Of a stretch of DNA of 64,000 bases, positions 4,816-62,703 are shown piece by piece (the stretch's first letter is position 1; each line of letters begins with the position of its first letter). Source of the DNA: Escherichia phage vB_EcoM_VR25. The stretch lies in sequence record NC_028925.1. One strand, written 5' to 3'. A program made the position numbers and the translations under genes. Below the pieces are notes generated by a model. It did no database searches and was not told where the DNA came from. It saw only the letters and a program-made list of their open reading frames with translations.

Positions 4816-4865
4816 CTTTCCTCTTGTGTATGGAGGTATTATAAGTCACATATTTTAAAGCAAAA

Positions 4866-6555: not shown

Positions 6556-7311
6556 TTAATTAAAAATTTGAACAACCATGGAACGCGGGACAACAGTAAA
6601 TTCACCAACATGGACGACGTTCAGGAGTTCAACACCATCTTCAATCCACTGGTCTGTTACCCAACCACAAATGGAACTATTAAATGGACGTTTGATTTGA
6701 ACTGGTTTGCACAGCAAGTCAACAGGGTCACCCAGTTCGCTAACTTCTTTCAACAGTACAGATTCACGCGGGTAAAGGATAGCTTCAAGATGCTCGTCTG
6801 ATTCATTGACTGCAGTAAATTCAAAGATGTTTAAGTGAGTGCTGTACTTAACTGTTTTTACAGTAAATGGAGCAAAGCCAAAAATACCTTTCAGCACACG
6901 CCAACCTGCATGCAGTGCGACAGTCTTTCCAAACTGACTATCATCTTCAATAAGCTGATAGGTTTTACCAACTTTGATAGGAGTTTCTTCAACTTCTTTG
7001 AAAAGTTGAATCTCAGCTTCATAAACCATAATTTTTTCCACTTCATTAGTATCCAGACGACGGGCATGCAAAATATATGCTTTATCAAACCAGTTACTTT
7101 TTACAAAAGTTTCAACAACAAATTCACCTTCACCTAAAGCATCAGTCAAAGTATTATACCCAGAAATCATAGCTGCGTTTTGAATAATAGGTTCAATCAG
7201 ATGATAAGTTTTGTTAATTTCAATAGTCATATTTTGTTTCTCAAGTTTTAATGGTTTAATTGGGCGAACATACATGCTTGTGATATCAAAGTCAATAAAT
7301 TCTGGTTTCAT
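6556..7311 (-). CDS. hypothetical protein, 251 aa, paralogous C-terminal domain
   Basis: See 5975-6478; long ORF in the array. Confidence 0.5.
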   Translation of the reverse strand: MKPEFIDFDITSMYVRPIKPLKLEKQNMTIEINKTYHLIEPIIQNAAMISGYNTLTDALGEGEFVVETFVKSNWFDKAYILHARRLDTNEVEKIMVYEAEIQLFKEVEETPIKVGKTYQLIEDDSQFGKTVALHAGWRVLKGIFGFAPFTVKTVKYSTHLNIFEFTAVNESDEHLEAILYPRESVLLKEVSELGDPVDLLCKPVQIKRPFNSSICGWVTDQWIEDGVELLNVVHVGEFTVVPRSMVVQIFN

Positions 7312-7568
7312 TATGCCACCTCGTTGAACATCGCTAGTTGATTAGGTTGCACAACCATAATTTCACGACGACCTTTTGCGTTTGACACGTTCAGGTAGAT
7401 GCCTTTGTTCATGTCTGTTTCTTTATCATATACTGCAACTTTATTGACAGTAAAGATTTTACCACGAATATTTGTAAATGCACATTCAAACGCTTTGGTC
7501 AGACCTGCTTCAGCAGCTTGAATAGCAGACATTTCATATTGTTGGCCAATTTTAAAAGAAGTAATCAT
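7311..7568 (-). CDS. hypothetical protein, about 85 aa
   Basis: Start moved to an internal ATG preceded by GAGGA; the upstream ATG lies inside the promoter -10 region. Confidence 0.5.
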   Translation of the reverse strand: MITSFKIGQQYEMSAIQAAEAGLTKAFECAFTNIRGKIFTVNKVAVYDKETDMNKGIYLNVSNAKGRREIMVVQPNQLAMFNEVA

Positions 7569-7597
7569 TTTGTTTTCCTCATCAGTAGTTGATGAGA

Positions 7598-7631
7598 TGA
7601 TTATGTCTCTTTCCATTGGCCTTGTACACTA
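7598..7631 (-). promoter_or_regulatory. early-type promoter (-35 GTGTACA, about 17 nt spacer, -10 CATAAT) with conserved leader
   Basis: Hexamers read on the minus strand; followed by the repeated ATCTCATCAACTACTGATGAGGA leader and an ATG. Confidence 0.5.
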
Positions 7632-7635
7632 CTTT

Positions 7636-8319
7636 TTATCGTTTTTTCGGTAAAGATAACGGGTCTGCATCTTCTTCGGCAGGAACTTCATCTAAACCAA
7701 GAGCATAGCGCTGTGCGTACTTCAGCATAAGAATATCTTTCGCACAATCATGCACACTATCATGCGCTACAAATCCATCCAAAGTCCCCTTCGGTAACGG
7801 AGTTTCACACATCTTACGGACGAGTGACAGTGCTTCGATTGCTGTCCGGATATCTCGCTGGTTCCAGAATACAACCGGTTCCAGGTCATAGGTATTCAAT
7901 TCACGCTCAGGGATACCCTCATTGCGTTGCAGGTCGCGAATAAGGTCAACAAACAACGGGAAGTCAAAAGACATTCCACGACACCACATAAGGCTTTCGT
8001 ATTTGTTAATTCCGTTGCCCTTCAGATAGTCAATCGCTTGTTGGATGCCAGTCAGAGTATCGACATCATTTGCAGTTGGCGCCAGGTTAACACGTGCTTC
8101 TGGAGATTGTTTTTTCCACCAACCCATGGTTGTTGTGTCAAACAGACGTTTACCTTTCTGGTATTCTAGGCTGAACTTAATGCGTTTACCGCGATTAACC
8201 AGAGTTTCGAATGATTCCACCACTGCAGGGTCAGATTCGAATGTAATCAGAGCCAGGTCAATAACGGCTCCCTTCGAGCCGTTTCCCAGAGTTTCAAAGT
8301 CAATAATAGCATCAATCAT
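7636..8319 (-). CDS. dexA: exonuclease A (DnaQ-like 3'-5' exonuclease), 227 aa
   Basis: N-terminal IIDFETLG exonuclease motif; same length and position as T4 DexA. Confidence 0.8.
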   Translation of the reverse strand: MIDAIIDFETLGNGSKGAVIDLALITFESDPAVVESFETLVNRGKRIKFSLEYQKGKRLFDTTTMGWWKKQSPEARVNLAPTANDVDTLTGIQQAIDYLKGNGINKYESLMWCRGMSFDFPLFVDLIRDLQRNEGIPERELNTYDLEPVVFWNQRDIRTAIEALSLVRKMCETPLPKGTLDGFVAHDSVHDCAKDILMLKYAQRYALGLDEVPAEEDADPLSLPKKR

Positions 8320-11051: not shown

Positions 11052-11666
11052 TTAATTCAAAACAGTTAAATGCCAAACAGTATACAGGTTATTCAATGGG
11101 TGTGTCTCAATTAAATCTACGCGAAGCGTAGTCCCAGCGGGAAACATAAACTCATCCTCATCATTAACCAGGTGTAAGTTTGACTTCCTGGTTGCTTCTG
11201 GATATGCACCATTGAACTCTTCAGGAGGAGCACCGCAAATCATTTTAAAGATTGCTTCCTGATAGTTATACGCATAAGGTGCATTGTTTATGCAGAAAAT
11301 ATTCCTTGTACCATAGAAGCTATATGATGCGAAATTTCTTGCAACCTGCCAGTCCCTGGAAAAACTCATCACACGATTAAACTCAATTGTTGCACCAACA
11401 TATCTTAAATCTTCCAGGTGTTCCATGGTTTTCTTTGATATACCACGGAACAATGCTGCAGGCGGTGCATTGTTCAGATTGTTGCGGATAATCCTGGTTA
11501 AGTCTTCTTGAATCAGGTCGGGTTTATTTTCCATACACTGCCAGAGTACTGATTGCTCATTATCTGTATAAAGAGCATCAATCTCTGCTTGACATTGGTC
11601 ACGAAAAGACTCACTAGAAGCGGCCGTATCAATAATTCCATTCAAAACGTCATCAGTGTACAGCAT
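11052..11666 (-). CDS. modA: ADP-ribosyltransferase (ModA/ModB family), about 204 aa
   Basis: R-S-E signature read in ALFRG ... SFSRDW ... EDEFMFP; start set at an internal ATG after the conserved leader; modA versus modB assignment is positional only. Confidence 0.6.
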   Translation of the reverse strand: MLYTDDVLNGIIDTAASSESFRDQCQAEIDALYTDNEQSVLWQCMENKPDLIQEDLTRIIRNNLNNAPPAALFRGISKKTMEHLEDLRYVGATIEFNRVMSFSRDWQVARNFASYSFYGTRNIFCINNAPYAYNYQEAIFKMICGAPPEEFNGAYPEATRKSNLHLVNDEDEFMFPAGTTLRVDLIETHPLNNLYTVWHLTVLN

Positions 11667-11694
11667 TTTATTATCCTCATCAGTAGTTGATAAA

Positions 11695-11728
11695 AACATC
11701 TTAACGTGTCTTATTGTTCTTGTACACA
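11695..11728 (-). promoter_or_regulatory. early-type promoter (-35 GTGTACA) with CAACTACTGATGAGGA leader
   Basis: Read from the minus strand upstream of the 11052-11666 start. Confidence 0.45.
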
Positions 11729-12271
11729 GTCAAGAACATAATAATCACCAACAAATCCAGCATCAACTATCACGAATTTCTGGTCAACTGGAACAAACCA
11801 TTCAAGCTCAGAATCAATCATGTCCATGTATTCTTCGCGCCTTAACGTTGCTTCCTGTTTGGAACCAGAGGCAGTATTGAAGAATTTCAGTGGAACATCA
11901 AGCGCGAGCTTACGCATCGCATCATGATAACAAAAAGCCTCGGTCTGATTTAATCTGACAATAGTCCTTGTCACATATTCCATTGCAGCAAAATCCCTGG
12001 CAATGCCATAGTCTTCTGTAAAGGAAGTTATTCTTCCAAATTCAAAAGGTTGCATTGATTCTTTTGCTTCATCTAACAAATCAATCTCTTGCTGGGTAAC
12101 CCCACGATACAAGACTGTATCAGGTACAGATAGCCTTGACTTGATGATTGAGTTGACGTTTGAATGCAAGGTTTTGTCAACCTTTGATGTGCGACATTCA
12201 AACAATGAAGCTATCTCCATTTCGCTAAATTTTAACTGGTTGGGTTCTGTATCAGATTTGATGATGTTCAT
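11711..12271 (-). CDS. modB: ADP-ribosyltransferase (ModA/ModB family), 186 aa
   Basis: LYRGV ... TSFTED ... acidic E-x-E region; paralog of the adjacent gene; assignment positional. Confidence 0.55.
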   Translation of the reverse strand: MNIIKSDTEPNQLKFSEMEIASLFECRTSKVDKTLHSNVNSIIKSRLSVPDTVLYRGVTQQEIDLLDEAKESMQPFEFGRITSFTEDYGIARDFAAMEYVTRTIVRLNQTEAFCYHDAMRKLALDVPLKFFNTASGSKQEATLRREEYMDMIDSELEWFVPVDQKFVIVDAGFVGDYYVLDCVQEQ

Positions 12272-14115: not shown

Positions 14116-14169
14116 AGTATTCTCCTCTGTAATTGAAATAATTATACCATCTCTATTAAAAGCAAAAAA

Positions 14170-14187
14170 GGGAACCCGAAGGTTCCC
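14170..14187 (-). terminator. stem-loop gggaacc-cgaa-ggttccc with T-run on the minus strand
   Basis: Inverted repeat with UUCG-type loop and flanking A/T runs, downstream of soc. Confidence 0.55.
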
Positions 14188-14192
14188 TTTAA

Positions 14193-14462: not shown

Positions 14463-14678
14463 TTACGCATATTTCTTATCAATATAAAAATGACCGCCAC
14501 CTTTGATAAAGACCCAGAATAGATTTCTATCGTCTGTATCCCGACAGTAAAAATCATCTAACTGGAAATAGTTTTCTTCAGGGAATTCAAGATGTCGGCC
14601 GAGTTCTATTGCATCAGAACCGAACGCTTTAGTAGCGGGACGACCGTCATCGTCCCATTTCTTGAAATTGAATTTCAT
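14463..14678 (-). CDS. hypothetical protein, 71 aa (position of soc.1)
   Basis: ORF in the array. Confidence 0.45.
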   Translation of the reverse strand: MKFNFKKWDDDGRPATKAFGSDAIELGRHLEFPEENYFQLDDFYCRDTDDRNLFWVFIKGGGHFYIDKKYA

Positions 14679-14887
14679 TTTGAGTGCTCAGCAATCAGTT
14701 TTAAAGTCTCTTCATTAACCCAATCGAACATGTGCATATGGTCGGATTTAACCGTAATCAATTGAGTAATATGACGGAGCTGATTAGCTAAGAGCTCTTC
14801 AACGAGCTCGTGGTCAGCATTTTTAATTAACCATTCTGCTCTCTTCTTACGAGCTTTCTTAAGCTGACGTTTATTTAAACGAGACAT
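14675..14887 (-). CDS. hypothetical basic protein, 70 aa (position of soc.2)
   Basis: ATGA/TAATG-coupled ORF. Confidence 0.45.
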   Translation of the reverse strand: MSRLNKRQLKKARKKRAEWLIKNADHELVEELLANQLRHITQLITVKSDHMHMFDWVNEETLKLIAEHSK

Positions 14888-18330: not shown

Positions 18331-18624
18331 TTATTCACCTGTAACTTCTTTGACGATGTTTTCATTTTCAAAGTTAGGGTCACAATACAACACGTAATTA
18401 TACTGCATAACCCCACCAGATGCCAACTGGTCAGATACTTCTTTGACCTTGTTTGGTTGGTCACGTTTAGTGATGTTCATGATGTCCGCATAAATCTGGT
18501 GCTCAACTGCTTCCTGGTCAGCGGTCATTGACCACTCGCATAAGTCTTTATCATAACCAGCGGTAACTGGAGCTGCATGACATGAAGCGAGGACTAAGAT
18601 TGCTGCGATAGATAACTTTTTCAT
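18331..18624 (-). CDS. sp: Spackle periplasmic protein (Sp), 97 aa
   Basis: Signal peptide plus GYDKDLCEWSMTADQ ... GGVMQYNYVLYCD, matching T4 Sp by recall. Confidence 0.9.
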   Translation of the reverse strand: MKKLSIAAILVLASCHAAPVTAGYDKDLCEWSMTADQEAVEHQIYADIMNITKRDQPNKVKEVSDQLASGGVMQYNYVLYCDPNFENENIVKEVTGE

Positions 18625-18645
18625 TTGAATCTCCTTAGTAGTTGA

Positions 18646-18682
18646 TGGGATAATATTAAATCATTATTATCCCGTTGTACAC
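18646..18682 (-). promoter_or_regulatory. early-type promoter (-35 GTGTACA) with ATCCCATCAACTACT leader upstream of sp
   Basis: Read from the minus strand; conserved leader and AGGAG before the ATG. Confidence 0.45.
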
Positions 18683-19513: not shown

Positions 19514-19804
19514 TTAGATTTCCTCACAAAAGGCCCATTCAGCGTGATAAACTGTTGCGCCAGGGGTTGCATTCATTTGAACCAAGTCTACAGGTGAAAT
19601 CACACGATATAGCTTAGGTTCTCCTCCAATTGAACGTGCTGCACGTCCAGCATAAATCTTCGCCAAACCAATGTCTTCAGTAAAGAAAACACGATTTAGA
19701 TTTTTCTTACGACCAGTTTCTGACAGGACTCCAGTTTCTTCTGGAGGACAAAGCATGTTATTGATATTTGCCAGACTGCATGACCCATGATAGAAAGTTT
19801 TCAT
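19514..19804 (-). CDS. hypothetical protein, 96 aa, N-terminal FYHGS motif
   Basis: Not present between dmd and 41 in T4 as recalled; own promoter and leader cassette upstream. Confidence 0.5.
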   Translation of the reverse strand: MKTFYHGSCSLANINNMLCPPEETGVLSETGRKKNLNRVFFTEDIGLAKIYAGRAARSIGGEPKLYRVISPVDLVQMNATPGATVYHAEWAFCEEI

Positions 19805-19828
19805 TTTATTCTCCAGTAGTTGATAGGG

Positions 19829-19860
19829 TCATTATACTATAAAGAAAAAGGGGTGTACAC
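19829..19860 (-). promoter_or_regulatory. early-type promoter whose -35 GTGTACA sits in the loop of hairpin ggggtgtacacccc (PeSL-like)
   Basis: -10 TATAAT and -35 read on the minus strand; palindrome 19850-19864 overlaps the -35. Confidence 0.5.
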
Positions 19861-19872
19861 CCCTTTTATCAC

Positions 19873-24072: not shown

Positions 24073-24315
24073 TCATTGTTTCACCACAATAATTTGTGCG
24101 TTTGTTTTACGTTCAGCAACGATTGCCCAAATCAATGCAATTACCCAACCAATCATCGTCCAACCAAACAGAAGGTTGATGAAAAAGATTCCGACATTGC
24201 TTCGGGTGCCACGCAGTAATGCGATAATCCATGGTAAGAAATATCCGATGAACATAACGACAAGAGAACCAAAACCAAACACACCAGCACCTACGATTAA
24301 AGCTTCCATTTTCAT
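24073..24315 (-). CDS. imm: superinfection immunity protein Imm (membrane), about 80 aa
   Basis: Two hydrophobic helices with LLFGWTMIGWVIALIWAI signature; immediately upstream of gene 43 as in T4; start ambiguous between two nearby ATGs. Confidence 0.7.
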   Translation of the reverse strand: MKMEALIVGAGVFGFGSLVVMFIGYFLPWIIALLRGTRSNVGIFFINLLFGWTMIGWVIALIWAIVAERKTNAQIIVVKQ

Positions 24316-24370
24316 ATCCTCATTTAGTTGATGAAAGAATAATACGGCAATCCATTGCCGTTGTAAACAC

Positions 24371-27085
24371 TTAAAAGTCAAACATATCAAAAAGAGTTGC
24401 TTTCTTTTCGTAATCAACCTTTGCAGCTTCAGAGAAACCTGTCAATGGCTTAACAAAAGTCTTCTGGAACAGTGTGTTGTAGTCCATCCATTGCAGGACC
24501 TGGTCGCGGATTTCAATCGGGAGTTCAATCCCCGATGGCCATGCAATCACAGTTTCACCAAACGGGTTGCCGACTTTAAGAGGAAGCACATACACTTTTT
24601 CCCCTTCCATGATTTGCGGAACAGTCTTCAGACCTTTAGTTGCACGCATATAAGCGAGCACACCTTTGATATGAGCCGGGCACTTAAATCCAGGGAAACC
24701 ACCTTCGTTATATTTCTGGATGTTGTTAACCGATGATACACCCGCGATGGTCATATAGTTAAGCTCATTAAATTCCTTGTTGAATTCCTTGAAGTATGTC
24801 TGCAGAGATTCTTCACCTTCTTGCAACATACGACGGATACATTCTTTCAGAGCTTTCTGGCATGCCTTTGGAGTACTCGACTTTTGAGTTTCCAGTCCCA
24901 TGATTTTCAGTTTCGGAACAGCATATCGTGTGCCTTCCATATCATATACGTTCAGTGCATAACGCTTCTTCGCTGTCCAGAATCCACCAACACCTTTAGA
25001 ACCCAGCGGAGGACATGCAATTGCTTCACGGTCCATAAACATAAGGTGCTGTTTGTTGTTCATGTATTCAGCCAGTTCACGGAAAGCTTTATCGATTGCC
25101 GGTTCCAGACGGTCTTTTGCAAACTTGTCCATGAAGTCAACCAGGTGGTTTGTATCACGGAATTTAGATTCGCCACCAACCTTTTTAATCAGGTTATCGC
25201 ACTGGATATAAATGGAGTCAGTATCACCATAGAATACGTAAGTCTGACCTTGTGTACCACAAACACCATCAAAGTATTCGTTAACTTTACGTTCAATCCA
25301 CTGCAATGCCAACTGCCCGAAAGATGTAATCGCAGTTGCATTTCGCAGGTCAAAGTAACGGAACCAGATATTGCCCAGGGCACCATAACAGCTATTGATA
25401 AGCAGTTTACGGTTAATCTGTGCGGTCATACCAGCAACTTCTTCCATCTGTGCTTTATACAGCATACCATTCAGGACGGTTTGATTCAGACCATGTAAGG
25501 TTGTTTTCATATTGTCATCAAAGTCATGACGATAATCAACTTCTGGTTCGGTTGTGCCGGTTCCTGGATTACTCAGAGCTTCCTTAATCAGTTCACCATT
25601 ACGTTGAGCAGCAAGCATATAACCTTTGTGTTCTTTACGCTGATTAAACACCTTGGTGACTTCTGTCGGAATAATACCCGCAACATCTTTAAAATACATC
25701 ATACCATTTGGCGCACAACTAAATGCATCAGATGGACGGTCAGCAGTTCCTGCGATGTATTCGTGCATATGGGCTGGTGCAAATGACCCGGCAATCGTTT
25801 CTGGACTGATGTTAATCTGTCGGATGATGCTCGGATAAAGAGATGTTAAGTCGCAGCTCATTACATATTTGTATGCGTTCGGAATCGGTTCCTTAACAAA
25901 TGCACCAGGGAACGATTGACGAACATGTGATTTGGTTTCCGGGATAACCTTGTTTTGAGTCTTCAGACTGTTAAAGATAATCGCATCCCAAGTTTTGATT
26001 GGGCTGAATACAGACTGAATCTGCATCTTTGCATAATAACCCATCGATTGGCTCAGGTTAATGAACTGTCGCTTACGGTCAATCTGTACAACACGATAAA
26101 CGTCAATGATGTTATAGCTAATGTATCGCTGATGATTTGATTCGCGCAGTTTAGAAATCGGGCCATCATACGGGAGTTTACCAACGCCCAGCTCAGATTC
26201 CGCAACATAGTCCAACGAGTAAGATGGTTGGTTTGTGAAGCTGAACTTTTTGTACAGGTCCAGATAATCCAGAACAGAGACACCCAGAATCTGAATGATT
26301 TCTTGTTCTTCACCAAAGCCGTTGTTAATGACTTTAACTTTTGTACGACGATGTGGACTTAGACGTTTTGCCGTAGCTTCACCAAATACATTTTTTAGGC
26401 GGTTGTAGATATATGGAATATCAAATTTCTCGATGTTCCAACCAGTTAACATAACCGGAGTTTTCTCGTTCCAGAATACCAAATACTGCTGGAGCATTTC
26501 TTCTTCTGAATCGAAAGCCATATAAACAATTTTTTCAAGGATTTCACTCGGGACTTCATCACCACCATCTTCCTGCAGCTTAGCAGCAATATCAATAGAC
26601 CATTGCTCCACAGTAGCGTATGGTGAGCCCAAAAGGTCAAAGACATAGAATTTATCGTCTACCGAATCATAGTGCGTCAGGGCATCAATAGGGTGACGTG
26701 CTTCAGACGGCTCAGGGAACCCATCAGGAGATGTCACCTCGATATCGAAGTTAGCCACACGGATTTTACTTGAATCATATTTGATTTCATGTGGGTAACG
26801 GTCGCTCAGGTATGCGAGTTTGAAATCGTCCATACCCATAGCTTCGAGGCCCATATCGTTCATGCGCTTCATCCATTGCGAAGCATCACGCATGGAATCA
26901 AACTCTTTTTTCACACAACCTTTATTATAGATGTCTGAATATTTTGTTGCTTGGCCTTCACGAGCGTGCATAAAGAGACAAGGAGTATATGGAATTTCAC
27001 GGGTTCGCTCATTACCATTCTTGTCAATATAACGTTCGTGAAGATTATCGCCGATTTGTTCGATAGTTAAATAAAATTCTTGCAT
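24371..27085 (-). CDS. 43: DNA polymerase gp43 (family B), 904 aa
   Basis: Exonuclease FDIE and polymerase YGDTDS motifs; size matches T4 gp43. Confidence 0.95.
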   Translation of the reverse strand: MQEFYLTIEQIGDNLHERYIDKNGNERTREIPYTPCLFMHAREGQATKYSDIYNKGCVKKEFDSMRDASQWMKRMNDMGLEAMGMDDFKLAYLSDRYPHEIKYDSSKIRVANFDIEVTSPDGFPEPSEARHPIDALTHYDSVDDKFYVFDLLGSPYATVEQWSIDIAAKLQEDGGDEVPSEILEKIVYMAFDSEEEMLQQYLVFWNEKTPVMLTGWNIEKFDIPYIYNRLKNVFGEATAKRLSPHRRTKVKVINNGFGEEQEIIQILGVSVLDYLDLYKKFSFTNQPSYSLDYVAESELGVGKLPYDGPISKLRESNHQRYISYNIIDVYRVVQIDRKRQFINLSQSMGYYAKMQIQSVFSPIKTWDAIIFNSLKTQNKVIPETKSHVRQSFPGAFVKEPIPNAYKYVMSCDLTSLYPSIIRQINISPETIAGSFAPAHMHEYIAGTADRPSDAFSCAPNGMMYFKDVAGIIPTEVTKVFNQRKEHKGYMLAAQRNGELIKEALSNPGTGTTEPEVDYRHDFDDNMKTTLHGLNQTVLNGMLYKAQMEEVAGMTAQINRKLLINSCYGALGNIWFRYFDLRNATAITSFGQLALQWIERKVNEYFDGVCGTQGQTYVFYGDTDSIYIQCDNLIKKVGGESKFRDTNHLVDFMDKFAKDRLEPAIDKAFRELAEYMNNKQHLMFMDREAIACPPLGSKGVGGFWTAKKRYALNVYDMEGTRYAVPKLKIMGLETQKSSTPKACQKALKECIRRMLQEGEESLQTYFKEFNKEFNELNYMTIAGVSSVNNIQKYNEGGFPGFKCPAHIKGVLAYMRATKGLKTVPQIMEGEKVYVLPLKVGNPFGETVIAWPSGIELPIEIRDQVLQWMDYNTLFQKTFVKPLTGFSEAAKVDYEKKATLFDMFDF

Positions 27086-35591: not shown

Positions 35592-35857
35592 CAGTGCACC
35601 AATTGGGCAGCTTCTAAAACATCATCAAGCTTATCAAACTGGTCAACATAATCAATCCCACCAACTTCATCTTTGGCATACAACCAATACTGCTTGAATT
35701 CATATTCAATAATAAAGTGGTCGCCTTCAATCTGGAGGACACCAACATCATTAAATTGAACTGCATAACCCGTAAAGCGGATATCATTCAGGAGTTCTTC
35801 TTTCATAGTAATCATTTCCAGGTTTTTCTCATAATGAGAGAGTTTAATTTTAATCAT
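35591..35857 (-). CDS. hypothetical protein, 88 aa
   Basis: TAATG-coupled ORF. Confidence 0.45.
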   Translation of the reverse strand: MIKIKLSHYEKNLEMITMKEELLNDIRFTGYAVQFNDVGVLQIEGDHFIIEYEFKQYWLYAKDEVGGIDYVDQFDKLDDVLEAAQLVH

Positions 35858-36198
35858 TTCGCGCCCTTAACAATTTTCAGGTCAACAAAACCTTTCTTGC
35901 GTTGGGAATTCATGCGCTTGATGGCTTTGTCAGAAACTTCTTTGTTTTCACGTGGGAGCGGCAGACCAAACGCTACTACATCAAATTCATTCAGGATATA
36001 CTGGACAAGGCTTTCACGAATACGTGCTTTACCCATTGTCTGACCTTCTGCAATAATCAGTTTCTGTACATCGCCTTCCCATTGGTCCAGAATCTCAGGA
36101 GTAACGAAACCAGATTTCATCAGAGTGTTGACTTTAGCAAATGCGAAATTAGCGATGGTGTTAGTGATAGATGCAGTCATGATATATTCCTCAGTCAA
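35854..36198 (-). CDS. hypothetical protein, 114 aa
   Basis: ATGA-coupled ORF. Confidence 0.45.
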   Translation of the reverse strand: MTEEYIMTASITNTIANFAFAKVNTLMKSGFVTPEILDQWEGDVQKLIIAEGQTMGKARIRESLVQYILNEFDVVAFGLPLPRENKEVSDKAIKRMNSQRKKGFVDLKIVKGAK

Positions 36199-36247
36199 TT
36201 AAAATTTTATTATCCTTGGGGTCATTATACCATGACCCCGTTGGTTT

Positions 36248-37135: not shown

Positions 37136-37314
37136 AATTTAGGTCCTTTTGCAACTGTATTGAACAAGCTACGGTCACACACCATCAACGGAGCATCAGG
37201 CCATTTCAAAGGACGATACCATACATCTTGGTCAGTCACTTTGGTTACCTGTACAGGATAGCCATTTACCGAATAATACCGGTCAACTTTAATTTCTTTA
37301 TCTTGAACAACCAT
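37132..37314 (-). CDS. hypothetical protein, 60 aa
   Basis: Preceded by a promoter and the conserved leader. Confidence 0.45.
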   Translation of the reverse strand: MVVQDKEIKVDRYYSVNGYPVQVTKVTDQDVWYRPLKWPDAPLMVCDRSLFNTVAKGPKL

Positions 37315-37344
37315 TTTGTTTTCCTCATCAGTAGTTGATGGGAT

Positions 37345-37377
37345 AATGATACATCATTCAAAGGGGCTTGTACACCC
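37345..37377 (-). promoter_or_regulatory. early-type promoter with -35 GTGTACA inside hairpin gggg-cttgtaca-cccc, plus conserved leader
   Basis: Read on the minus strand; leader CCCATCAACTACTGATGAGGA precedes the ATG at 37314. Confidence 0.45.
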
Positions 37378-37381
37378 CTTT

Positions 37382-37699
37382 TTAATCTTCAATTAAGTCC
37401 TGGTCATACCCCAGGGATATCAGTTTTGTTTTAAAGGCAGGAATATTGGTCATTTTTTCATCATTGACAAAAATCACCGGGTAACGAATGTTAAGGGTAG
37501 GATATCCAGCACGCTTAGCCAGAGACACGATTAAAGGCCTGTCATAAGCGATTTCAGAGCCTTGTTTGTTAAGGACTGAATAGAATGTATAAGGAAGGTT
37601 TAAGGAGCCCAGAAGGCTCCTGATGTGCATACAACCAGGGCATCGACCGACTTCTTCGGGGATACCATAGATTTCAATCTTAGTCGAGTTTTGGCCCAC
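37382..37699 (-). CDS. nrdH: glutaredoxin-like protein NrdH, 105 aa
   Basis: Redox motif CPGC near the N-terminus; position upstream of nrdG/nrdD. Confidence 0.65.
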   Translation of the reverse strand: MGQNSTKIEIYGIPEEVGRCPGCMHIRSLLGSLNLPYTFYSVLNKQGSEIAYDRPLIVSLAKRAGYPTLNIRYPVIFVNDEKMTNIPAFKTKLISLGYDQDLIED

Positions 37700-37979: not shown

Positions 37980-38215
37980 TCTTTCACCTTCAGCATTTTT
38001 GCAATGGTATTATGAATAGCCTGGATTCTTTTGTTGAATTCAGAGCTTTCGAGGCCAGGATTAGTGCTTAACCAACCGATGATAACAAACAGCAAACCAA
38101 ACGGGATAGCCAGAATAAGCAGACAAACGATGAACAACACAAGCGTTATGTTTGCCAGAATATCTGCTGTAGCATTACGAAATTTATTCATATTTACCCT
38201 TAATTGATTAACCAA
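37976..38215 (-). CDS. small membrane protein, 79 aa
   Basis: Central hydrophobic segment LVLFIVCLLILAIPFGLLFVIIGWL. Confidence 0.45.
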   Translation of the reverse strand: MVNQLRVNMNKFRNATADILANITLVLFIVCLLILAIPFGLLFVIIGWLSTNPGLESSEFNKRIQAIHNTIAKMLKVKE

Positions 38216-38305
38216 GCATTGATAAACACTAAACTATACTGCGAATAAAATTCTGGACCAAAATGAAAAATCATATCATTTATAGTATCCATAATATAAT
38301 TCAAT

Positions 38306-38776
38306 TTAATCATGTTTCCACACCCCATCGGTATTTGACCAAAGTCGCTGATTATCCGACCCTCGCCATAGCTTTTTAGTCGGAAGATTTTTCTCATACT
38401 TCCCATCAATAATAACATCAACATATTTAATCATTTCTAGTTGTTTAATATCTTCAAACTTATATCCTGTCCACAGCCAAATGCTTTTATTGGGATAAAG
38501 ATTTTTAATAGTTTGAACCACAGAGTGAATAACATCTCGGTTATCGGGATAGAGAGGGTCTCCTCCAGTTATAGTTAATCCTTCTATATAATCATTATTC
38601 AAACATTCAATTAATTGTTCTAGTGTTTCACCAGTGAATGGAACGCCATTTCTAGCATTCCATGTTGATTTATTATAACACCCTTCGCATTTATGCAAAC
38701 AACCTGTAACGAAAAGAACGGTCCTGCACCCAGGACCATTAATAAAATCGCAAGGATAAATTCTATCATAATTCAT
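38306..38776 (-). CDS. nrdG: anaerobic ribonucleotide reductase activating protein NrdG (radical SAM), 156 aa
   Basis: CxxxCxxC cluster motif (CLHKCEGC); ATGA-coupled to nrdD. Confidence 0.9.
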   Translation of the reverse strand: MNYDRIYPCDFINGPGCRTVLFVTGCLHKCEGCYNKSTWNARNGVPFTGETLEQLIECLNNDYIEGLTITGGDPLYPDNRDVIHSVVQTIKNLYPNKSIWLWTGYKFEDIKQLEMIKYVDVIIDGKYEKNLPTKKLWRGSDNQRLWSNTDGVWKHD

Positions 38777-40590
38777 TGGTGTTTAACCCTATGCATGATT
38801 TCTTTATTTTTGCCGAGATTAAATCCGCGTTCGTTCGGGTTTCCAAGATAGCCGCATGTTCTTCTTATGGTGTTCATCTTTTTGGGGTCAGTTTCTCCAC
38901 AAATAGAACAAACAAATCCGTTTTCAGTAGGAGTCATTTCATGAGTACTTCCACATGTAAAACATTTATCCACTGGCATATTAACACCAAAATAATCTAA
39001 ATGCTGTGCAGCATAATCCCATACGGTCTCAAGACCTTTTAAATTGTTTTTCATGTCAGGTAATTCAACATAAGAAATGTGACCACCTGTCGCAATGAAA
39101 TGATATGGCGCTTCATGAGAAATCTTTTCAAACGGAGTAATATTTTTTTCTACTGAAACATGGAAACTGTTAGTGTACCATCCTTTATCGGTAACATCTT
39201 TTACACTTCCATATTTTTCTGTATCGAGTTTACAGAATCGATAACACAGGTTTTCAGCAGGAGTGGAGTACAGGCTAAAAGCGAATCCGGTTCTTTCAGT
39301 CCATTGTTTAAGACAAGCATTCATTTTAGTCAAAATTTCTTGTCCAATATCACGACCGACAAGAATATTCAATTCGTGAATACCAATGTATCCTAGGGAC
39401 ACTGAACTTCTACCGTTTTTAAATAACTCAATTATATCATCGTCGGGTTTAAGACGAACCCCGAATGCACCTTCTTGGTAAAGAATAGGGGCAACAGTCG
39501 CTTTAACTCCTTTTAAGGAATTAATTCTACACATCAAAGCTTCAAAACACAAATTCATTCGTTCATTGAATAATTCAACAAATTTCTGTTCATTGAATTG
39601 CGTTCCAATATAAGAATCTAATGCAATACGAGGAAGATTCAGTGTTACAACACCAAGATTATTACGTCCATCAAGAATTTCATTACCAGTCGAATCTTTC
39701 CATACGCTCAAGAAACTACGGCAACCCATTGGAGAAACAGGAACAGATGAGCCGGTGATAGCTTTATTGTTCTTAGCTGAAATAATATCAGGATACATCC
39801 TTTTGCTTGCACACTCTAGAGCAAGCTGCTTGATATCATAGTTCGGGTCGTCTTTATAAAGATTAACACCTTCTTCAACAAACATAACAAGCTTAGGGAA
39901 AATAGGAGTTATTCCATCACGACCAAGACCTTTAATACGATTTTTCAGAATTGCTTTCTGAATCATTCGTTCAGTCCAGTCAGTTCCCGTACCAAATGTA
40001 ATTGTCACAAAAGGGGTCTGTCCGTTTGAACTAAAGAGAGTGTTTACTTCATATTCATAAGCTTGGAATGCATCATATACATCTTTTTCTGTTTTAGATT
40101 GGGCATAATTCAACGCATCAGTGATTTGCCATTTTTCTGCATCCTCAATATGTTTTGCATAGGTGCGTTTAACATAAGGAGAAAATACTTTGTCTACATT
40201 AGCAAAAGTCGTTCCGCCATATTGGTGAGAAGCAACTTGTGCAGTAATTTGTGCCATAATTGCAGTAGCAACACCAATTGATTTAGGAGTTTCAATCTGT
40301 GCATTACCGAGCTTAAATCCGTTTTCAAGCATTCCTTTTAAATCTACTAAACAACAATTAGTAAATGGAAGAGCAGGGGAATAATCAATATCATGGAAAT
40401 GAATAATTCCGCTTTCATGTGCTTTCATAATAAAAGACGCGACCATATTTTTGGCAATGTGTTTAGATACAATACCAGCCATAAGGTCCCGTTGAGTTGG
40501 AAAAACACGAGAATCTTTATTAGCATTCTCGTTTAAAAGGTCTTTATTAGTTTTATGAATCAATCCTTCAATTTCTTTTTCAATTGTCAT
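38773..40590 (-). CDS. nrdD: anaerobic ribonucleoside-triphosphate reductase NrdD, 605 aa, uninterrupted
   Basis: Glycyl-radical C-terminal motif RTCGYLG and Zn-ribbon cysteines; one continuous ORF, no intron. Confidence 0.95.
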   Translation of the reverse strand: MTIEKEIEGLIHKTNKDLLNENANKDSRVFPTQRDLMAGIVSKHIAKNMVASFIMKAHESGIIHFHDIDYSPALPFTNCCLVDLKGMLENGFKLGNAQIETPKSIGVATAIMAQITAQVASHQYGGTTFANVDKVFSPYVKRTYAKHIEDAEKWQITDALNYAQSKTEKDVYDAFQAYEYEVNTLFSSNGQTPFVTITFGTGTDWTERMIQKAILKNRIKGLGRDGITPIFPKLVMFVEEGVNLYKDDPNYDIKQLALECASKRMYPDIISAKNNKAITGSSVPVSPMGCRSFLSVWKDSTGNEILDGRNNLGVVTLNLPRIALDSYIGTQFNEQKFVELFNERMNLCFEALMCRINSLKGVKATVAPILYQEGAFGVRLKPDDDIIELFKNGRSSVSLGYIGIHELNILVGRDIGQEILTKMNACLKQWTERTGFAFSLYSTPAENLCYRFCKLDTEKYGSVKDVTDKGWYTNSFHVSVEKNITPFEKISHEAPYHFIATGGHISYVELPDMKNNLKGLETVWDYAAQHLDYFGVNMPVDKCFTCGSTHEMTPTENGFVCSICGETDPKKMNTIRRTCGYLGNPNERGFNLGKNKEIMHRVKHQ

Positions 40591-41060
40591 TTTAAACTCT
40601 TTCTAAGCTGCTTCTTAAATGAAGCCATTAATTGTGTTTTGGTGTCCGATTCATTATAAGTCATACCGTTCAAAAGCATTTCCTGAATCATTTCTTCTTT
40701 CCCCCGGCGACCAAACTCTTTGGCTTTGTCTGTCACAAAATTGGGGTGAATATTGTTTTCGGTATAATCAGATTTCAGATAGACAAGCAAACTCTCTAAC
40801 CATTCCAGGTAGTCAACATCGCGACCTTTCAGACCCGAGCGGCTGAACTTATGCTTCATTTGTCCTTCTGTTCCATTGCACAGATTGCATAGTAACCCAC
40901 GAACCTTACCGGCTTTTGGCCCATTCAATTCGTGGTCATGGTCAAGATGGTTGGCCTGAACATCGGAGTCCAAATCACGGTGGCAAATTGGACACTTACC
41001 ATTTTGTGCATCATAAAGTTTTTGTTTTTCTTCTTTGTATAATTTTCCAGTCAACAACAT
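40587..41060 (-). CDS. 49: recombination endonuclease VII gp49, 157 aa
   Basis: Sequence matches T4 endo VII by recall (MLLTGKLYKEEKQK..., CPICHRDL ... HDHELNGPKAGKVRGLLCNLCN). Confidence 0.9.
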   Translation of the reverse strand: MLLTGKLYKEEKQKLYDAQNGKCPICHRDLDSDVQANHLDHDHELNGPKAGKVRGLLCNLCNGTEGQMKHKFSRSGLKGRDVDYLEWLESLLVYLKSDYTENNIHPNFVTDKAKEFGRRGKEEMIQEMLLNGMTYNESDTKTQLMASFKKQLRKSLK

Positions 41061-41544: not shown

Positions 41545-41834
41545 TAAAAGACCTCATCAGAAAAGCGAAGTTGAGCTTCAAGCCAATGAATATAATCTGC
41601 TGCGGCAAAAATTAAAGCAGATTCTTCATCGGGTAACTTACGAGAATCCGACAATTCGTAAAGTGAATGTTCAATTAAACGACCTTTATGTCGACCTACT
41701 TCAATTTTGGTACTCATATCCAAACTCCATATCGATTAATTCATTGTTTGAAGGTTCATTATACTCTGTTTCGGAACCATTATAAACAGGTTCCTCTGGC
41801 TCGACAGTTTCCCATCGAGCGGTATACCATGGTT

Positions 41835-42155
41835 TTATAACGTAATCCATTCTCTGATAGTTTGGGTTACGACACGTTCTTGGAGCTCAACCAGTTCAAC
41901 AGTCGGGACCATATGGTCCCAGTCAGTATGATAAGAGCCGGTACGAGTTTCGTTTACAGCCACATGCACATTATGTTTTTTGCTGAAATAAATTGCCTGG
42001 CGATATTGGTATTTGCCATTTTGTGTCCATTCGCCTAATTCAACCGGAACCAAGTAGTCCGAAAATTCAAACTCGTATGATTCGGTAAATGCATCATGGT
42101 CTTCAATGATTTCGCTTAAAACAGCATCAACATCTAATTCATTTTCAATAGTCAT
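41835..42155 (-). CDS. hypothetical acidic protein, 106 aa
   Basis: ORF in the array. Confidence 0.45.
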   Translation of the reverse strand: MTIENELDVDAVLSEIIEDHDAFTESYEFEFSDYLVPVELGEWTQNGKYQYRQAIYFSKKHNVHVAVNETRTGSYHTDWDHMVPTVELVELQERVVTQTIREWITL

Positions 42156-42460
42156 TGGTCACTCCAATAGCTTGATACTTCAAAATCAGGCTCGCCGTCG
42201 TCCCAATACCAAGGACCAACCGGATGCCAATCGCCATGCTTATCTTCTTCGTATTCTTCAGATTCAAGTCCAACGTATTGCCATTGGACTTCATAAGCAG
42301 TGCCACCAATTACGACAGTGTTTTCACCATACGGATTAGCCACAGCAAAGTCAATGCCTTCTTCTTTCGCCAGGGCTACCATGTATTCATAGAGTTTATA
42401 TTCCAGGTCGTCTTCGTTACCATCACCCAGATAAATTGTTTGTCCGCTTAATTCACTCAT
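42152..42460 (-). CDS. hypothetical acidic protein, 102 aa
   Basis: ATGA-coupled ORF. Confidence 0.45.
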   Translation of the reverse strand: MSELSGQTIYLGDGNEDDLEYKLYEYMVALAKEEGIDFAVANPYGENTVVIGGTAYEVQWQYVGLESEEYEEDKHGDWHPVGPWYWDDGEPDFEVSSYWSDQ

Positions 42461-51358: not shown

Positions 51359-51561
51359 TATTCCACCACATATGATAATGAGAAAATTGCTGATGAAAGA
51401 TGAGTAGCATCTTCTTCACACAGTTCAAATGGAGCTTTCTGCAAGAGCTCAACCACTTCTTCATCAGTGGCACGGTCCATAAAGATTGCATAATCGTTAA
51501 GATAGATAACAACCTCATCACCAGTATTAACTGCATCAATCTTGATGTTCTTAATTCTCAT
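51358..51561 (-). CDS. hypothetical protein, about 67 aa
   Basis: Start at an internal ATG directly after the conserved leader and GAGGAG. Confidence 0.45.
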   Translation of the reverse strand: MRIKNIKIDAVNTGDEVVIYLNDYAIFMDRATDEEVVELLQKAPFELCEEDATHLSSAIFSLSYVVE

Positions 51562-51586
51562 TGTATTCTCCTCAGTAGTTGATGGG

Positions 51587-51620
51587 ATAATAGTACACCC
51601 TTTTGATGAGGATGTAAACC
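51587..51620 (-). promoter_or_regulatory. early-type promoter (-35 GTTTACA, -10 TACTAT) with CCCATCAACTACTGAGGAG leader
   Basis: Read on the minus strand; probably heads the operon running to about 47790. Confidence 0.5.
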
Positions 51621-51635
51621 CCCTAAATGAAAAAA

Positions 51636-51657
51636 GGTCCACCCGAAGGCAGACCTT
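51636..51657 (-). terminator. imperfect stem-loop ggtc...cgaa...gacc with flanking A/T runs
   Basis: Read from sequence; weaker stem than the other terminators. Confidence 0.4.
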
Positions 51658-51662
51658 TTGAA

Positions 51663-55214: not shown

Positions 55215-55673
55215 TTAGATATAAATCACTTTTGTGCTAATTTTTCCTTCCAGACGATTAGAGTTAACAAACGCCATACGACAACACATGGTTGGAGACT
55301 TCCCAGGAAGAGCTGGGTTAACTGTCATTCCTAACCATAAGTTCTTGTCTGTGATTTCCAGACGAAGTGGACGGTAGTTCACATTCGGGTCAATTTGTGC
55401 TTCAACTTCCGGGAGTGGTTTCATCTCCAGGAATTCAACAATTTCTTTTACATGTGGTGTGATTTTTCCAAACAAGTCAAAAACATATTGTTCGTCAATT
55501 TCACGTTGGATTGCACGGTCCAACAGGTGTGGACTGTACTTAATGAAGAATGCTTCAAGGCCTGCTTCTTTACAAGCCTTGTTGATAGCATTATTAATTT
55601 TGAGGAACTCCGTTTCAAAAATACGACGAAGTTTATTGCGGCGAATGTAAACACTTGAATCGATAGTAGTCAT
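55215..55673 (-). CDS. regB: RegB site-specific endoribonuclease, about 152 aa
   Basis: Sequence matches T4 RegB by recall (IRRNKLRR.FE.EF ... YSPHLLDRAIQREIDE ... RPLRLEITD.NLWLG); start at the internal ATG after the promoter and leader. Confidence 0.9.
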   Translation of the reverse strand: MTTIDSSVYIRRNKLRRIFETEFLKINNAINKACKEAGLEAFFIKYSPHLLDRAIQREIDEQYVFDLFGKITPHVKEIVEFLEMKPLPEVEAQIDPNVNYRPLRLEITDKNLWLGMTVNPALPGKSPTMCCRMAFVNSNRLEGKISTKVIYI

Positions 55674-55698
55674 GATTATCTCCTTTTGTTTGATGGGA

Positions 55699-55730
55699 TA
55701 ATCATAACTCATTTCAACCTGCTTGTACAC
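55699..55730 (-). promoter_or_regulatory. early-type promoter (-35 GTGTACA, -10 TATGAT) with ATCCCATCAAAC leader upstream of regB
   Basis: Read on the minus strand. Confidence 0.45.
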
Positions 55731-58096: not shown

Positions 58097-58411
58097 TTAA
58101 GCTTTAGGGAAATCGCGCAAAAACGCATCATAAAGTTTATTACCAATGCGACGGAATGCTTTTGCAGCATGAACGTTATCTGGGTTTGCAATTTTAATCT
58201 GCATTACATGACTACCAGCCCATGATTTAGCTTCGTCATAATAACCTTTAATTTCTTTAATAGTCTTGCGTTTTCCACCAGGACCATCAACAGTAATTTT
58301 CCACGAACCAGTGCTTGTTTCACTTGGTGGGGTTAACTGTTCAATCCAGACATAACCACCTTCAACACGTTGTTGAGTAGATTCAGTAATAAATTCTTGA
58401 TAAGTTTTCAT
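58097..58411 (-). CDS. internal protein with capsid-targeting leader (MKTYQEFITE), about 104 aa
   Basis: Start at the internal ATG that begins MKTYQEFITE. Confidence 0.65.
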   Translation of the reverse strand: MKTYQEFITESTQQRVEGGYVWIEQLTPPSETSTGSWKITVDGPGGKRKTIKEIKGYYDEAKSWAGSHVMQIKIANPDNVHAAKAFRRIGNKLYDAFLRDFPKA

Positions 58412-58439
58412 TTTATATTCCATGTTTGGTTGATAAAAT

Positions 58440-58471
58440 CATTATACAACCTTTTTAGTTAAGCGTACACA
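58440..58471 (-). promoter_or_regulatory. early-type promoter (-35 GTGTACG, -10 TATAAT) upstream of an internal-protein gene
   Basis: Read on the minus strand. Confidence 0.4.
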
Positions 58472-58875
58472 GCTTTCCCATAGTATTTGTACCAGGTAGG
58501 CTTTTGAGAAATTTTCTCATTCAGTCTGGATTGACTGATTTCAATTGACCAGATTGATGGTTGATAATCATTCTTCCATTCATCAGGAATATCATTTAAA
58601 TCTTGGGTAGAAATATCTTTTATATTAAACCCTCGCTTTAAACATTCAGCAATAAGTTCTTGATGGCGGTTTTTAAGGAACAAAAGCTTATCATAAAAGA
58701 AGGTGACATGACCAGTTCCTAAAAGAAAAGATGATGGGATTTTAAAGTCAGACACCTTTTTACCATTTTGTACATGCTTACGAACAGCCCCAAACACGCG
58801 AGGAAGCTCACGGTATTCAGCCATAAGGTGTTGGTCAGCAAGTTCAGATACCAGGGTTAAATTAATGCGAGTCAT
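58459..58875 (-). CDS. denV: endonuclease V (pyrimidine-dimer DNA glycosylase) DenV, 138 aa
   Basis: Sequence matches T4 DenV by recall ([35 protein letters not shown] ... [13 protein letters not shown]). Confidence 0.95.
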
Positions 58876-58902
58876 GTTTGTTCCTCCAAGTAGTTGATGG
58901 GA

Positions 58903-58935
58903 TAATAATACATCAATACGAGGAGGTTGTAAACT
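58903..58935 (-). promoter_or_regulatory. early-type promoter (-35 GTTTACA, -10 TATTAT) with CCCATCAACTACTTGGAGGA leader upstream of denV
   Basis: Read on the minus strand. Confidence 0.45.
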
Positions 58936-59216
58936 TATTTTGTGGAAGCAGCCGAGATATATTTTTCAAGACGCTGTTTCATCAGCGAGCCGTTCTTAGC
59001 GATTTCTTCCGGTTTATCGCACATACGCAATAGAGCTTCAAGCTTAGTGATATCAGATGTCCGCTCAAATTTGCGAGTATCTACCTTACTAGCAAGTTCG
59101 GAAATACGCGCTAACAGACTTTCGGCTTCTACCAAAGCTGTGCCCAGCTTAGTTGCAAATGCGTCAGTAGCTTCATTAAGAGTGGTCACGGTCAAAAATT
59201 CATTATAGGTTTTCAT
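58935..59216 (-). CDS. internal protein with capsid-targeting leader ([10 protein letters not shown]), 93 aa
   Basis: Degenerate form of the IP leader; lies between e and denV. Confidence 0.55.
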
Positions 59217-61684: not shown

Positions 61685-61743
61685 AATATTTTCCTCATTG
61701 ATTGTGGGACCATTGTGTCATAGTCCCACTTGGATGTACACAC

Positions 61744-62703
61744 TTATTTTGAAAAAGGTTTAATCAAATGTTGGTTAGCCTTGAAACGTTTAACATAGTC
61801 TTCGCGACCCAGGGTGTTGTACATATTAACCACTTCCTGGTAATGTTCCCAGGCATACTCACGGAACCATCCAGAAGTAATGGAGGTACAGACTTTTTCT
61901 AGTGCAATATGGAAGCTCACGGATGGAGATATATTGAACTCATTAGGAACCTGCGAACGCTCCAGAGCAAGTACACATGCTTCTTCATAAACCCCTGCCA
62001 GTTTAATAACATCAGGAAGTGCTTCAAATTTTTCACGTGAGGTCATGACTTCTGAATCATCCTTCATATAGAACTTATATGCAGGCTTATCAGCAAGCGC
62101 CACGGCCTCGTGGATGGAGTCATGGTCAAGGGTATAGATTGTATCATTAAAGAAAGTTTTCTTGCCCACGTCTAGTTTAGGGTGACTATATGACAGTGTT
62201 TCTGTCTGACGTTGTAACATAATTTTCTGCAGTTCATCATTAAGAACAACACCCTTATTACGAAGGTAATTAATATGGCTCATGGTCTTCAGGAAGAATG
62301 GATTGTTCTTCAGGTAACGATGAGACAATTTAATTGCCAGACAAATATCAGGGGTCGCCCAATAAAAACCAGATAGACGGTCTTTCTGAATATTTGCCTT
62401 CGCATATTTGAGCAGACGATAACTGGAGGTAAAATCTTCCTCTTGTAGCTCATCAGTCAACTCACGAACACTTGTCAGGGCGCGGACGATATATGCTTCA
62501 AAATAGGTTTCTTTACCGTTGTGCATACACTTAAAAGCTTGCACATCTGGGTTATCCACATGAACATGCTGCCCCATCATCTGGGTTTTAAAGCTGTTCC
62601 AGGAACCCTGGTCAGCGATAAAATCCCAATCAGAGTTTTCAATTTTCTTACTTTCAATCAGACCGGCGTTATGTAACGCGCGAGAACCAATAACTAACAT
62701 CAT
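61744..62703 (-). CDS. hypothetical protein, 319 aa, possible nucleotidyltransferase-like N-terminus
   Basis: N-terminal VIGSRALHNAG...SDWDF loosely fits a GS...DxD pattern, with longer than usual spacing. Confidence 0.45.
   Translation of the reverse strand: MMLVIGSRALHNAGLIESKKIENSDWDFIADQGSWNSFKTQMMGQHVHVDNPDVQAFKCMHNGKETYFEAYIVRALTSVRELTDELQEEDFTSSYRLLKYAKANIQKDRLSGFYWATPDICLAIKLSHRYLKNNPFFLKTMSHINYLRNKGVVLNDELQKIMLQRQTETLSYSHPKLDVGKKTFFNDTIYTLDHDSIHEAVALADKPAYKFYMKDDSEVMTSREKFEALPDVIKLAGVYEEACVLALERSQVPNEFNISPSVSFHIALEKVCTSITSGWFREYAWEHYQEVVNMYNTLGREDYVKRFKANQHLIKPFSK

Follow-up and report, generated by a model that had tools for sequence, protein, structure and literature searches.

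The window analysed here, the whole 64,000-nucleotide stretch of the Escherichia phage vB_EcoM_VR25 genome (NC_028925.1), spans the region from rIIA to e.x and is 98% identical to coliphage vB_EcoM-VR7 (Gaprivervirus); all of its genes lie on the minus strand. At positions 7575–7600 the minus strand reads TCATCTCATCAACTACTGATGAGGAA, which differs once (ATCTC in place of ATCCC) from the consensus leader quoted in an earlier note on this DNA, and which stands just ahead of the gene for an 85-amino-acid homologue of VR7 ORF013c. The core of this sequence, the 10-mer ATCAACTACT (hereafter the block), occurs exactly seven times in the window, every time on the minus strand; the shuffle expectation is 0.19 ± 0.46 copies, and none of 100 shuffles reached seven. 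Its exact reverse complement is absent from both the window and VR7, so no antisense partner was found. Counting three or four degenerate copies as well, there are 10 or 11; three of the degenerate ones precede regB, imm and an internal-protein gene, and there is perhaps a further one in front of the ORF at 61741. The exact copies and these three degenerate ones are as follows (SD, Shine-Dalgarno sequence).

7566–7629, minus strand: the locus itself, which reads GTGTAC-aaggccaatggaaagaga-CATAAT-catctc-ATCAACTACT-gatgaggaaaacaaa-ATG; -35 box GTGTAC 7629–7624, -10 box CATAAT 7605–7600, discriminator CATCTC 7599–7594, block 7593–7584, SD GAGGA 7580–7576 (GGAA, without GGAG), ATG 7568–7566; ORF013c homologue, extending to 7311; member of repeat families D1, D2, D3 and D5.
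11664–11727, minus strand: -35 box GTGTAC 11727–11722 within the stem GTTCTTG/CAAGAAC, -10 box TAAGAT 11703–11698, block 11691–11682, then GATGAGGATAATAAA, ATG 11666–11664; gene modA.
18622–18682, minus strand: -35 box 18682–18677, -10 box TAATAT 18658–18653, discriminator TATCCC, block 18646–18637, then AAGGAGATTCAA, ATG 18624–18622; gene sp (spackle; PF25676).
19802–19867, minus strand: terminator-like hairpin AAAAGGGG-TGTACA-CCCCTTTT 19867–19846 with the -35 box (19860–19855) in its loop, -10 box TATAAT 19836–19831, GACCCT, block 19824–19815, then GGAGAATAAA, a perfect RegB/S1 site, ATG 19804–19802; 96-amino-acid ORF upstream of dmd.
37312–37384, minus strand: exact match to the quoted 23-mer; hairpin AAAAGGGG-TGTACAAG-CCCCTTT around the -35 box (37375–37370), -10 box TATCAT 37351–37346, TATCCC, block 37339–37330, then GATGAGGAAAACAAA (GGAA), ATG 37314–37312; gene 55.6.
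51559–51660, minus strand: upstream intrinsic terminator GGTCTGCC-TTCG-GGTGGACC followed by T6, -35 box GTTTAC 51619–51614, -10 box TACTAT 51595–51590, TATCCC, block 51583–51574, then GAGGAGAATACA (C at RegB position 9), ATG 51561–51559; gene mobD.5.
58873–58934, minus strand: -35 box GTTTAC 58934–58929, -10 box TATTAT 58910–58905, TATCCC, block 58898–58889, then TGGAGGAACAAAC, ATG 58875–58873; gene denV (PF03013).
55671–55730, minus strand, degenerate: -35 box GTGTAC 55730–55725, -10 box TATGAT 55706–55701, TATCCC, ATCAAACAAA 55694–55685, then AGGAGATAATC, ATG 55673; gene regB.
24313–24368, minus strand, degenerate: -35 box GTTTAC 24368–24363, spacer hairpin ACGGCAAT-GGAT-TGCCGT, -10 box TATTAT 24344–24339, ATCAACTAAA 24332–24323, then TGAGGATATG; gene imm.
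58409–58470, minus strand, degenerate: -35 box GTGTAC 58470–58465, -10 box TATAAT 58446–58441, ATCAACCAAA 58434–58425; internal-protein-type gene (MKTYQEFI...); repeat family D12.

An unbiased repeat search independently returned a 51–76-nt promoter cassette around the block as the largest direct-repeat family of the window (family D1, nine copies); family D5 consists of the three near-identical copies that carry GATGAGGA (7563–7638, 11661–11736 and 37309–37384), and throughout families D1–D5 the repeated motif takes in the SD and start codon of the small early gene or ORFan that follows. The genes downstream of the cassettes encode 60–204 amino acids. The conserved leader had been credited to at least eight early genes, a number that is reached only when degenerate copies are counted along with the seven exact ones, and its conserved length of about 20 nt was overstated, since the invariant part is the 10-mer and the SD region varies among copies. 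Alignment of the leader copies, the check that had been proposed, bears this out: the block is invariant in all seven, but neither the SD region nor the leading ATCCC is (TATCCC is present in 4 of 7). The quoted 23-mer itself is found at three places with at most 3 mismatches (7576, 37322 and 51566; none in shuffles), at five with at most 4 and at seven with at most 6. An SD does follow the block as described, in the form GATGAGGA in three copies and GAGGAG, GGAG, AAGGAG and TGGAGG in one each, but no GGAG is present in the quoted sequence, whose last bases are GAGGAA. An A-rich spacer leads from the SD to the ATG, giving a 5' UTR of 20–25 nt.

The block begins exactly 6 nt past the -10 box (TAnnAT) in every copy, and an 18-nt spacer separates the latter from the -35 box, GT(G/T)TAC, again in every copy; the seven exact and three degenerate copies all read GT[GT]TAC-N18-[TC]AnnnT on the early-gene strand, as T-even early promoters do. 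The description of these sequences as early-gene leaders is well founded, in that they lie directly downstream of sigma-70-type early promoters in a register that is fixed in all copies. Nineteen credible early promoters can be aligned in the window, and these share an A-rich, UP-like region with the consensus aaaAa just 5' of the -35 box; the exact block is present in seven of them and a degenerate one in three or four, so that across the whole set it is only moderately conserved, most strongly at A+1, T+2 and A+8. A generic sigma-70 and terminator scan gave 55 promoter-like sites where 50 were expected and is non-discriminating by itself, although the cassette promoters, and the hairpins that overlap their -35 boxes, are among its calls.

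Because the usual 7-nt rule after the -10 box puts the transcription start at the A of ATCAAC, the leading ATCCC, or first 5–6 bases of the quoted motif, is to judge by spacing the promoter discriminator (-6 to -1) and would be untranscribed, not part of the leader; we infer +1 from the same spacing. In the window, VR7 and T4 taken together, anything between 0 and about 20 nt separates the block from the SD, whereas the register of block and -10 box is fixed, and at T4 positions 70696 and 27080 and VR7 positions 25297 and 145741 the block remains at +1 with the SD 10–20 nt further on. This argues that the block goes with the transcription start rather than with the ribosome-binding site.

About half of the copies (4–5 of 10) have a stem-loop that overlaps or adjoins the -35 box. 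The clear ones are at 19867–19846 (the clearest), 37384–37362, 11736–11715, 51660–51630 and 24361–24344, and stem-loops are absent or weak at 7629, 18682, 58934 and 55730. The leaders themselves, folded from +1, have z values of +0.4 to +1.7, and so are not more structured than shuffles and mostly less. These values bear on the idea that the palindrome TCATCA-ACTAC-TGATGA forms a 5'-terminal hairpin that protects the mRNA from 5'-end-dependent RNase E decay or modulates access to the SD. Three copies (7576, 11674 and 37322) can form its 6-bp stem and 5-nt loop, with a folding energy of -5.2 kcal/mol on the assumption of a start 2 nt further upstream, and some T4 copies contain the related TATCA-ACTAC-TGATA. 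From the predicted +1 A, however, only 4 bp and about -1 kcal/mol are left, the z of -1.16 is not significant, and the 3' arm is confined to 3 of 7 copies, the others having GAGGAG, GGAG or AAGGAG in place of GATGA without compensation; moreover, a scan of the whole window against Rfam at gathering thresholds gave no hits. We consider such a hairpin extremely unlikely.

The repeat is real but ordinary, a feature already known in kind, and T4 has the same ten bases. In the first 78 kb of T4 (NC_000866) the block stands in the same register, for example in TACTAT-taccct-ATCAACTACTGAGGAGAATAAAATG before trna.4; T4 promoters that carry it include those of trna.4, e.8, imm.1, nrdC.9 and denV as well as those at 70696, 27080 and 53943, and the T4 denV leader has the near-identical ATCAACTACA / ATCAACTACAGGAG. 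The VR7 genome contains about 16 promoter-linked copies, every one on the early-gene strand. In RB69 the block is present in degenerate versions, and the early promoters of RB49 have only the ATC or ATCAA start in common with it. The same cassette layout is present in T4-like IMG/VR contigs, JS98 included; in an IMG/VR scan with the 14-mer ATCAACTACTGAGG, 111 of 121 matches lacked an in-register -10 box and were chance-like, and eight were T4-like cassettes. A 42-nt cassette query gave matches of at least 99% in 105 phage records, at 12–15 places in each of the three best listed. Literature searches for the sequence string and for descriptions of VR7 or JS98 early promoters gave nothing specific.

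The early-promoter logos of the window and T4 are alike. Like those of the window, the T4 early promoters (sigma-70, Alt-enhanced) have a -35 GTTTAC, a 17–18-nt spacer, a -10 TAnnAT and a 6-nt discriminator, followed by ATCAACTACT(GA) at +1, GAGGAG and an A-rich spacer to the ATG, and the gene classes they serve are also the same (denV, sp, imm, regB, trna.4, internal proteins and mobD.5). They differ in the third position of the -35 hexamer, which is mostly G in the window (GTGTAC) and T in T4 (GTTTAC), in the discriminator, for which TATCCC is typical of the window and ACAACT of T4, and in the presence of the block at 55.6 and mobD.5 in the window but not in T4. At nrdC.5 the block occurs in JS98 and is missing from both T4 and the window, and this gain or loss, together with the lineage-typical discriminators, indicates concerted evolution. 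T4 early promoters have been described as "uber" sigma-70 promoters with "additional regions of consensus" (Hinton 2010, PMC2988021), and C is preferred at -3 to -1 (Nolan 2006, PMC1524935).

Composite units of this type have been named promoter-early stem-loop (PeSL) cassettes in T4-type phages (Arbiol 2010, PMC2839356; Comeau 2014, PMC4122927). The published PeSL alignments extend from an AT-rich upstream region by way of the stem-loop, -35, -10 and SD to the ATG, and in RB49/phi1 mini-circles the crossovers fall between the -10 box and the SD or ATG. The window's cassettes have this composite build, including the homology tract from the -10 box to the SD, and like PeSLs they are repeated before small early or variable genes; PeSLs are located at indel or replacement junctions between close relatives, and two of the 13 breakpoints between the window and VR7 coincide with cassettes. 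They differ in that the defining stem-loop is clear in only about half of the copies, and in the portions of the publications covered here the +1 to +10 block is not singled out.

The repeat likely represents the initially transcribed sequence and the 5' UTR, short and unstructured, of a T-even early promoter cassette (PeSL). Every copy is built to one plan. A-rich sequence comes first, and in many copies a G/C stem-loop or terminator lies ahead of or across the -35 box. This box, GT(G/T)TAC, is separated by 18 variable nucleotides from the -10 box, TAnnAT; a discriminator of 6 nt, frequently TATCCC, leads to the predicted start A with ATCAACTACT, and a GAGG or GGAG SD and an A-rich spacer then run to the ATG, so that the 5' UTR is only 20–25 nt long. 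Host sigma-70 RNA polymerase would fire these promoters straight after infection. The G-free block, with only A, C and U from +1 to +10, probably aids initiation and escape at a very tightly bound promoter, and probably keeps the tiny leader single-stranded so that the SD is open to ribosomes and protein S1; the lack of G in the block and the leaders' being no more structured than shuffles fit an open translation initiation region. The common sequence would also provide homology for recombination between cassettes, which would homogenise them and shuffle the genes they flank, and RegB sensitivity would be a separate, optional property that depends on the 11-nt stretch from GGA onwards.

Could the conserved sequence be nothing but a footprint of that recombination, left by recent PeSL gene conversion or duplication, with +1 to +10 not under selection? 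The lineage-typical discriminators and the gain or loss of the block at orthologous promoters are what this would produce, and the mini-circle crossovers of PeSLs do fall between the -10 box and SD (PMC2839356). Cassettes also coincide with breakpoints between the window and VR7, in 2 of 13 cases (58910 and 61747). The first of these is the start of a VR7 synteny break within the denV promoter; at the second a VR7-only ORF adjoins the cassette at 61741; and the cassette after dexA precedes motB.2 in T4 and an apparently unrelated ORF in the window (N-terminal residues only compared). Identity among the seven copies, however, is only 40% in the -35/-10 spacer and 34% in the upstream region, near background, with the block invariant in a set that was chosen for the exact block, so these are not recent duplicates of whole cassettes. 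Conversion tracts of just 10 nt are implausible, and although these genomes have diverged extensively in other regions, T4 still has the 10-mer and RB69 a degenerate form of it. A pure footprint is therefore very unlikely.

The earlier note had proposed that the conserved leader marks early mRNAs for RegB/S1 cleavage within the SD, as a shared RegB target or operator giving coordinated shut-off, and this RegB/operator interpretation is only partly supported. RegB is encoded in the window as stated, by an intact gene at 55673–55215 (Pfam PF10715, E 3.8e-72), and in T4 24 of 68 intergenic GGAG/U sites are efficiently cut, most of them SDs of early mRNAs (Durand et al. 2006, PMC1702504). The T4 RegB/S1 site is the 11-mer GGAGRAYARAA, which was derived from early leaders of the same type as the window's; in it the A-rich 7 nt on the 3' side of GGAG/U are required and the 5' sequence is not, and 48-nt windows around 26 cut sites have no other conserved position (PMC1702504). 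The site thus starts at GGA and runs 3', and the block lies 5' of it and outside it, which does not support the block as the target that had been suggested. The same study reports that a perfect A-rich tail does not rescue GGAA, which remains "very poorly cut", that cleavage of GGAU demands a strict tail (motB.2 and 55.2), that no C is tolerated at position 9, the reason why T4 denV is a poor substrate, and that the T4 mobD.5 transcript is RegB-insensitive (PMC1702504). T4 denV is also one of the leaders that carry the near-identical block.

In the seven leaders of the window the fourth position after GGA makes GGAA twice (7576, the quoted copy, and 37322), GGAG four times and GGAU once, so that GGAG/U is not present throughout; the RAYARAA tail fits at 19814, 11676 and both GGAA copies, but not at 51571 (C at position 9), 18629 or 58881. 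Judged against the T4 consensus the copies fall out as follows.

19814: GGAGAAUAAAA, 11/11 match; predicted cleavable.
11676: GGAUAAUAAAA, 11/11 match, identical to the RegB-cut T4 motB.2 site; predicted cleavable.
7576 and 37322: GGAAAACAAAA, GGAA; predicted poor.
51571: 10/11, C at position 9 (the copy matched by the 23-mer at 51566); predicted poor.
18629 and 58881: two deviations each; uncertain.

The SD-plus-spacer of the first two fits the consensus, and that of 51571 nearly does, but RegB sensitivity is predicted for only 2–3 of the 7 leaders; from sequence, the modA mRNA and that of the 96-amino-acid ORF upstream of dmd should be cut and those of the ORF013c homologue, 55.6 and mobD.5 should not. 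Of the sites in the window that lie close to a start codon, eight match at 10 or more of the 11 positions, and five of the eight are in leaders without the block, which makes RegB targeting a separable property of the SD-and-spacer module that the block does not determine. Given also the variable distance from block to SD, a conserved leader that serves as the shared RegB target is highly improbable. A RegA operator was considered as a further reading; known RegA sites are AU-rich and overlap the AUG, and are not known to lie at +1 to +10. We note that a perfect RegB-type 11-mer, GGATAATAAAA, is present at 36215–36240 (minus strand) with no obvious start codon adjoining; it directly follows the hairpin GGGGTCAT-GGTATA-ATGACCCC, which has TATAAT inside it.

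A second conserved early-leader family, ATACTGAGTTAC, has four copies on the minus strand, with +1 at about 47714, 47126, 20220 and 10957; these belong to four more of the 19 early promoters. Two of the four then have a perfect RegB/S1 site, GGAGAATAAAATG, and two are preceded by a common terminator and UP region (GGACCC-GAAG-GGTCC and a T run), which extends them to 68–87-nt repeats. This family may be derived from the main one, as ATCAACTACTGAG minus CAACT is ATACTGAG. It works without the block, which indicates that the block is not essential for early expression. At 14120–14190 (minus strand), upstream of the mrh.2 homologue, a terminator is followed by TGCTTT-N12-TATAAT, an arrangement reminiscent of a middle promoter with its MotA box; the corresponding place in T4 is occupied by a typical early promoter.

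The decamer does have one mildly interesting aspect, which is that its G-free +1 to +10 sequence is identical in T4 and VR25 and degenerate in RB69. Sigma-70 classically prefers to start at C(-1)A(+1)T(+2), and AUC likewise begins the T7 A1 and lambda PL transcripts. Exact identity over 10 nt between genera with only about 65–80% DNA identity exceeds what start-site preference alone would lead one to expect. Conceivably the decamer AUCAACUACU, from T4 to the VR7 group and in a subset of immediate-early mRNAs, is itself a functional tag beyond an optimum for start site and escape; at the DNA level it could act as an operator through which T-even early promoters are shut off, or at the RNA level some host or phage factor could recognise it as a 5'-end signal, with a role that could lie in translation enhancement, selective decay or 5'-end modification. 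Our literature search found no experimental account of the function of the +1 to +10 block, and we regard a tag of this sort as unlikely.

The gene content of the window and VR7 also differs at 4830–4863, 14463–14887, 35853–35859, 41811–42157 and 61747–61750. The VR7-only genes are ORF006c, segF, ORF070c, a MobE-like homing endonuclease and ORF135c, and several of the content differences involve homing endonucleases and not promoter cassettes. An extra 93-amino-acid gene at 58935–59216 (minus strand), between e and denV, is absent from VR7 and ends at the denV promoter; its product starts MKTYNEFL, an N-terminus of the internal-protein capsid-targeting type, and T4 has ipII and ipIII here. At 38191–40591 the window has nrdG (38306–38776) and nrdD (38773–40590; PF13597, E 2.5e-170) where VR7 has only about 125 bp, so the anaerobic ribonucleotide reductase is present in VR25 and missing from VR7.

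The importance of the cassette is mainly for annotation, as it marks immediate-early transcription units, flags likely recombination junctions in this phage group and fixes gene starts. An example of the last is the ORF at 7311–7616 (minus strand), whose longest-ORF start, like the annotated start of VR7 gp013 (7970–8275), is an ATG within its own -35/-10 spacer; the SD-associated start at 7568 gives a protein of 85 and not 101 amino acids, and in both phages the ORF as called probably reaches too far upstream, into the promoter. In three copies (7582, 11680 and 37328, minus strand) the GATGAGG variant gives rise to an additional ATG at +12, upstream of the main one. The resulting mini-ORF, MRKTK, lacks an SD of its own and is not kept in the other copies, and so is probably incidental; at the locus itself its stop overlaps the main start (AAAATGA).
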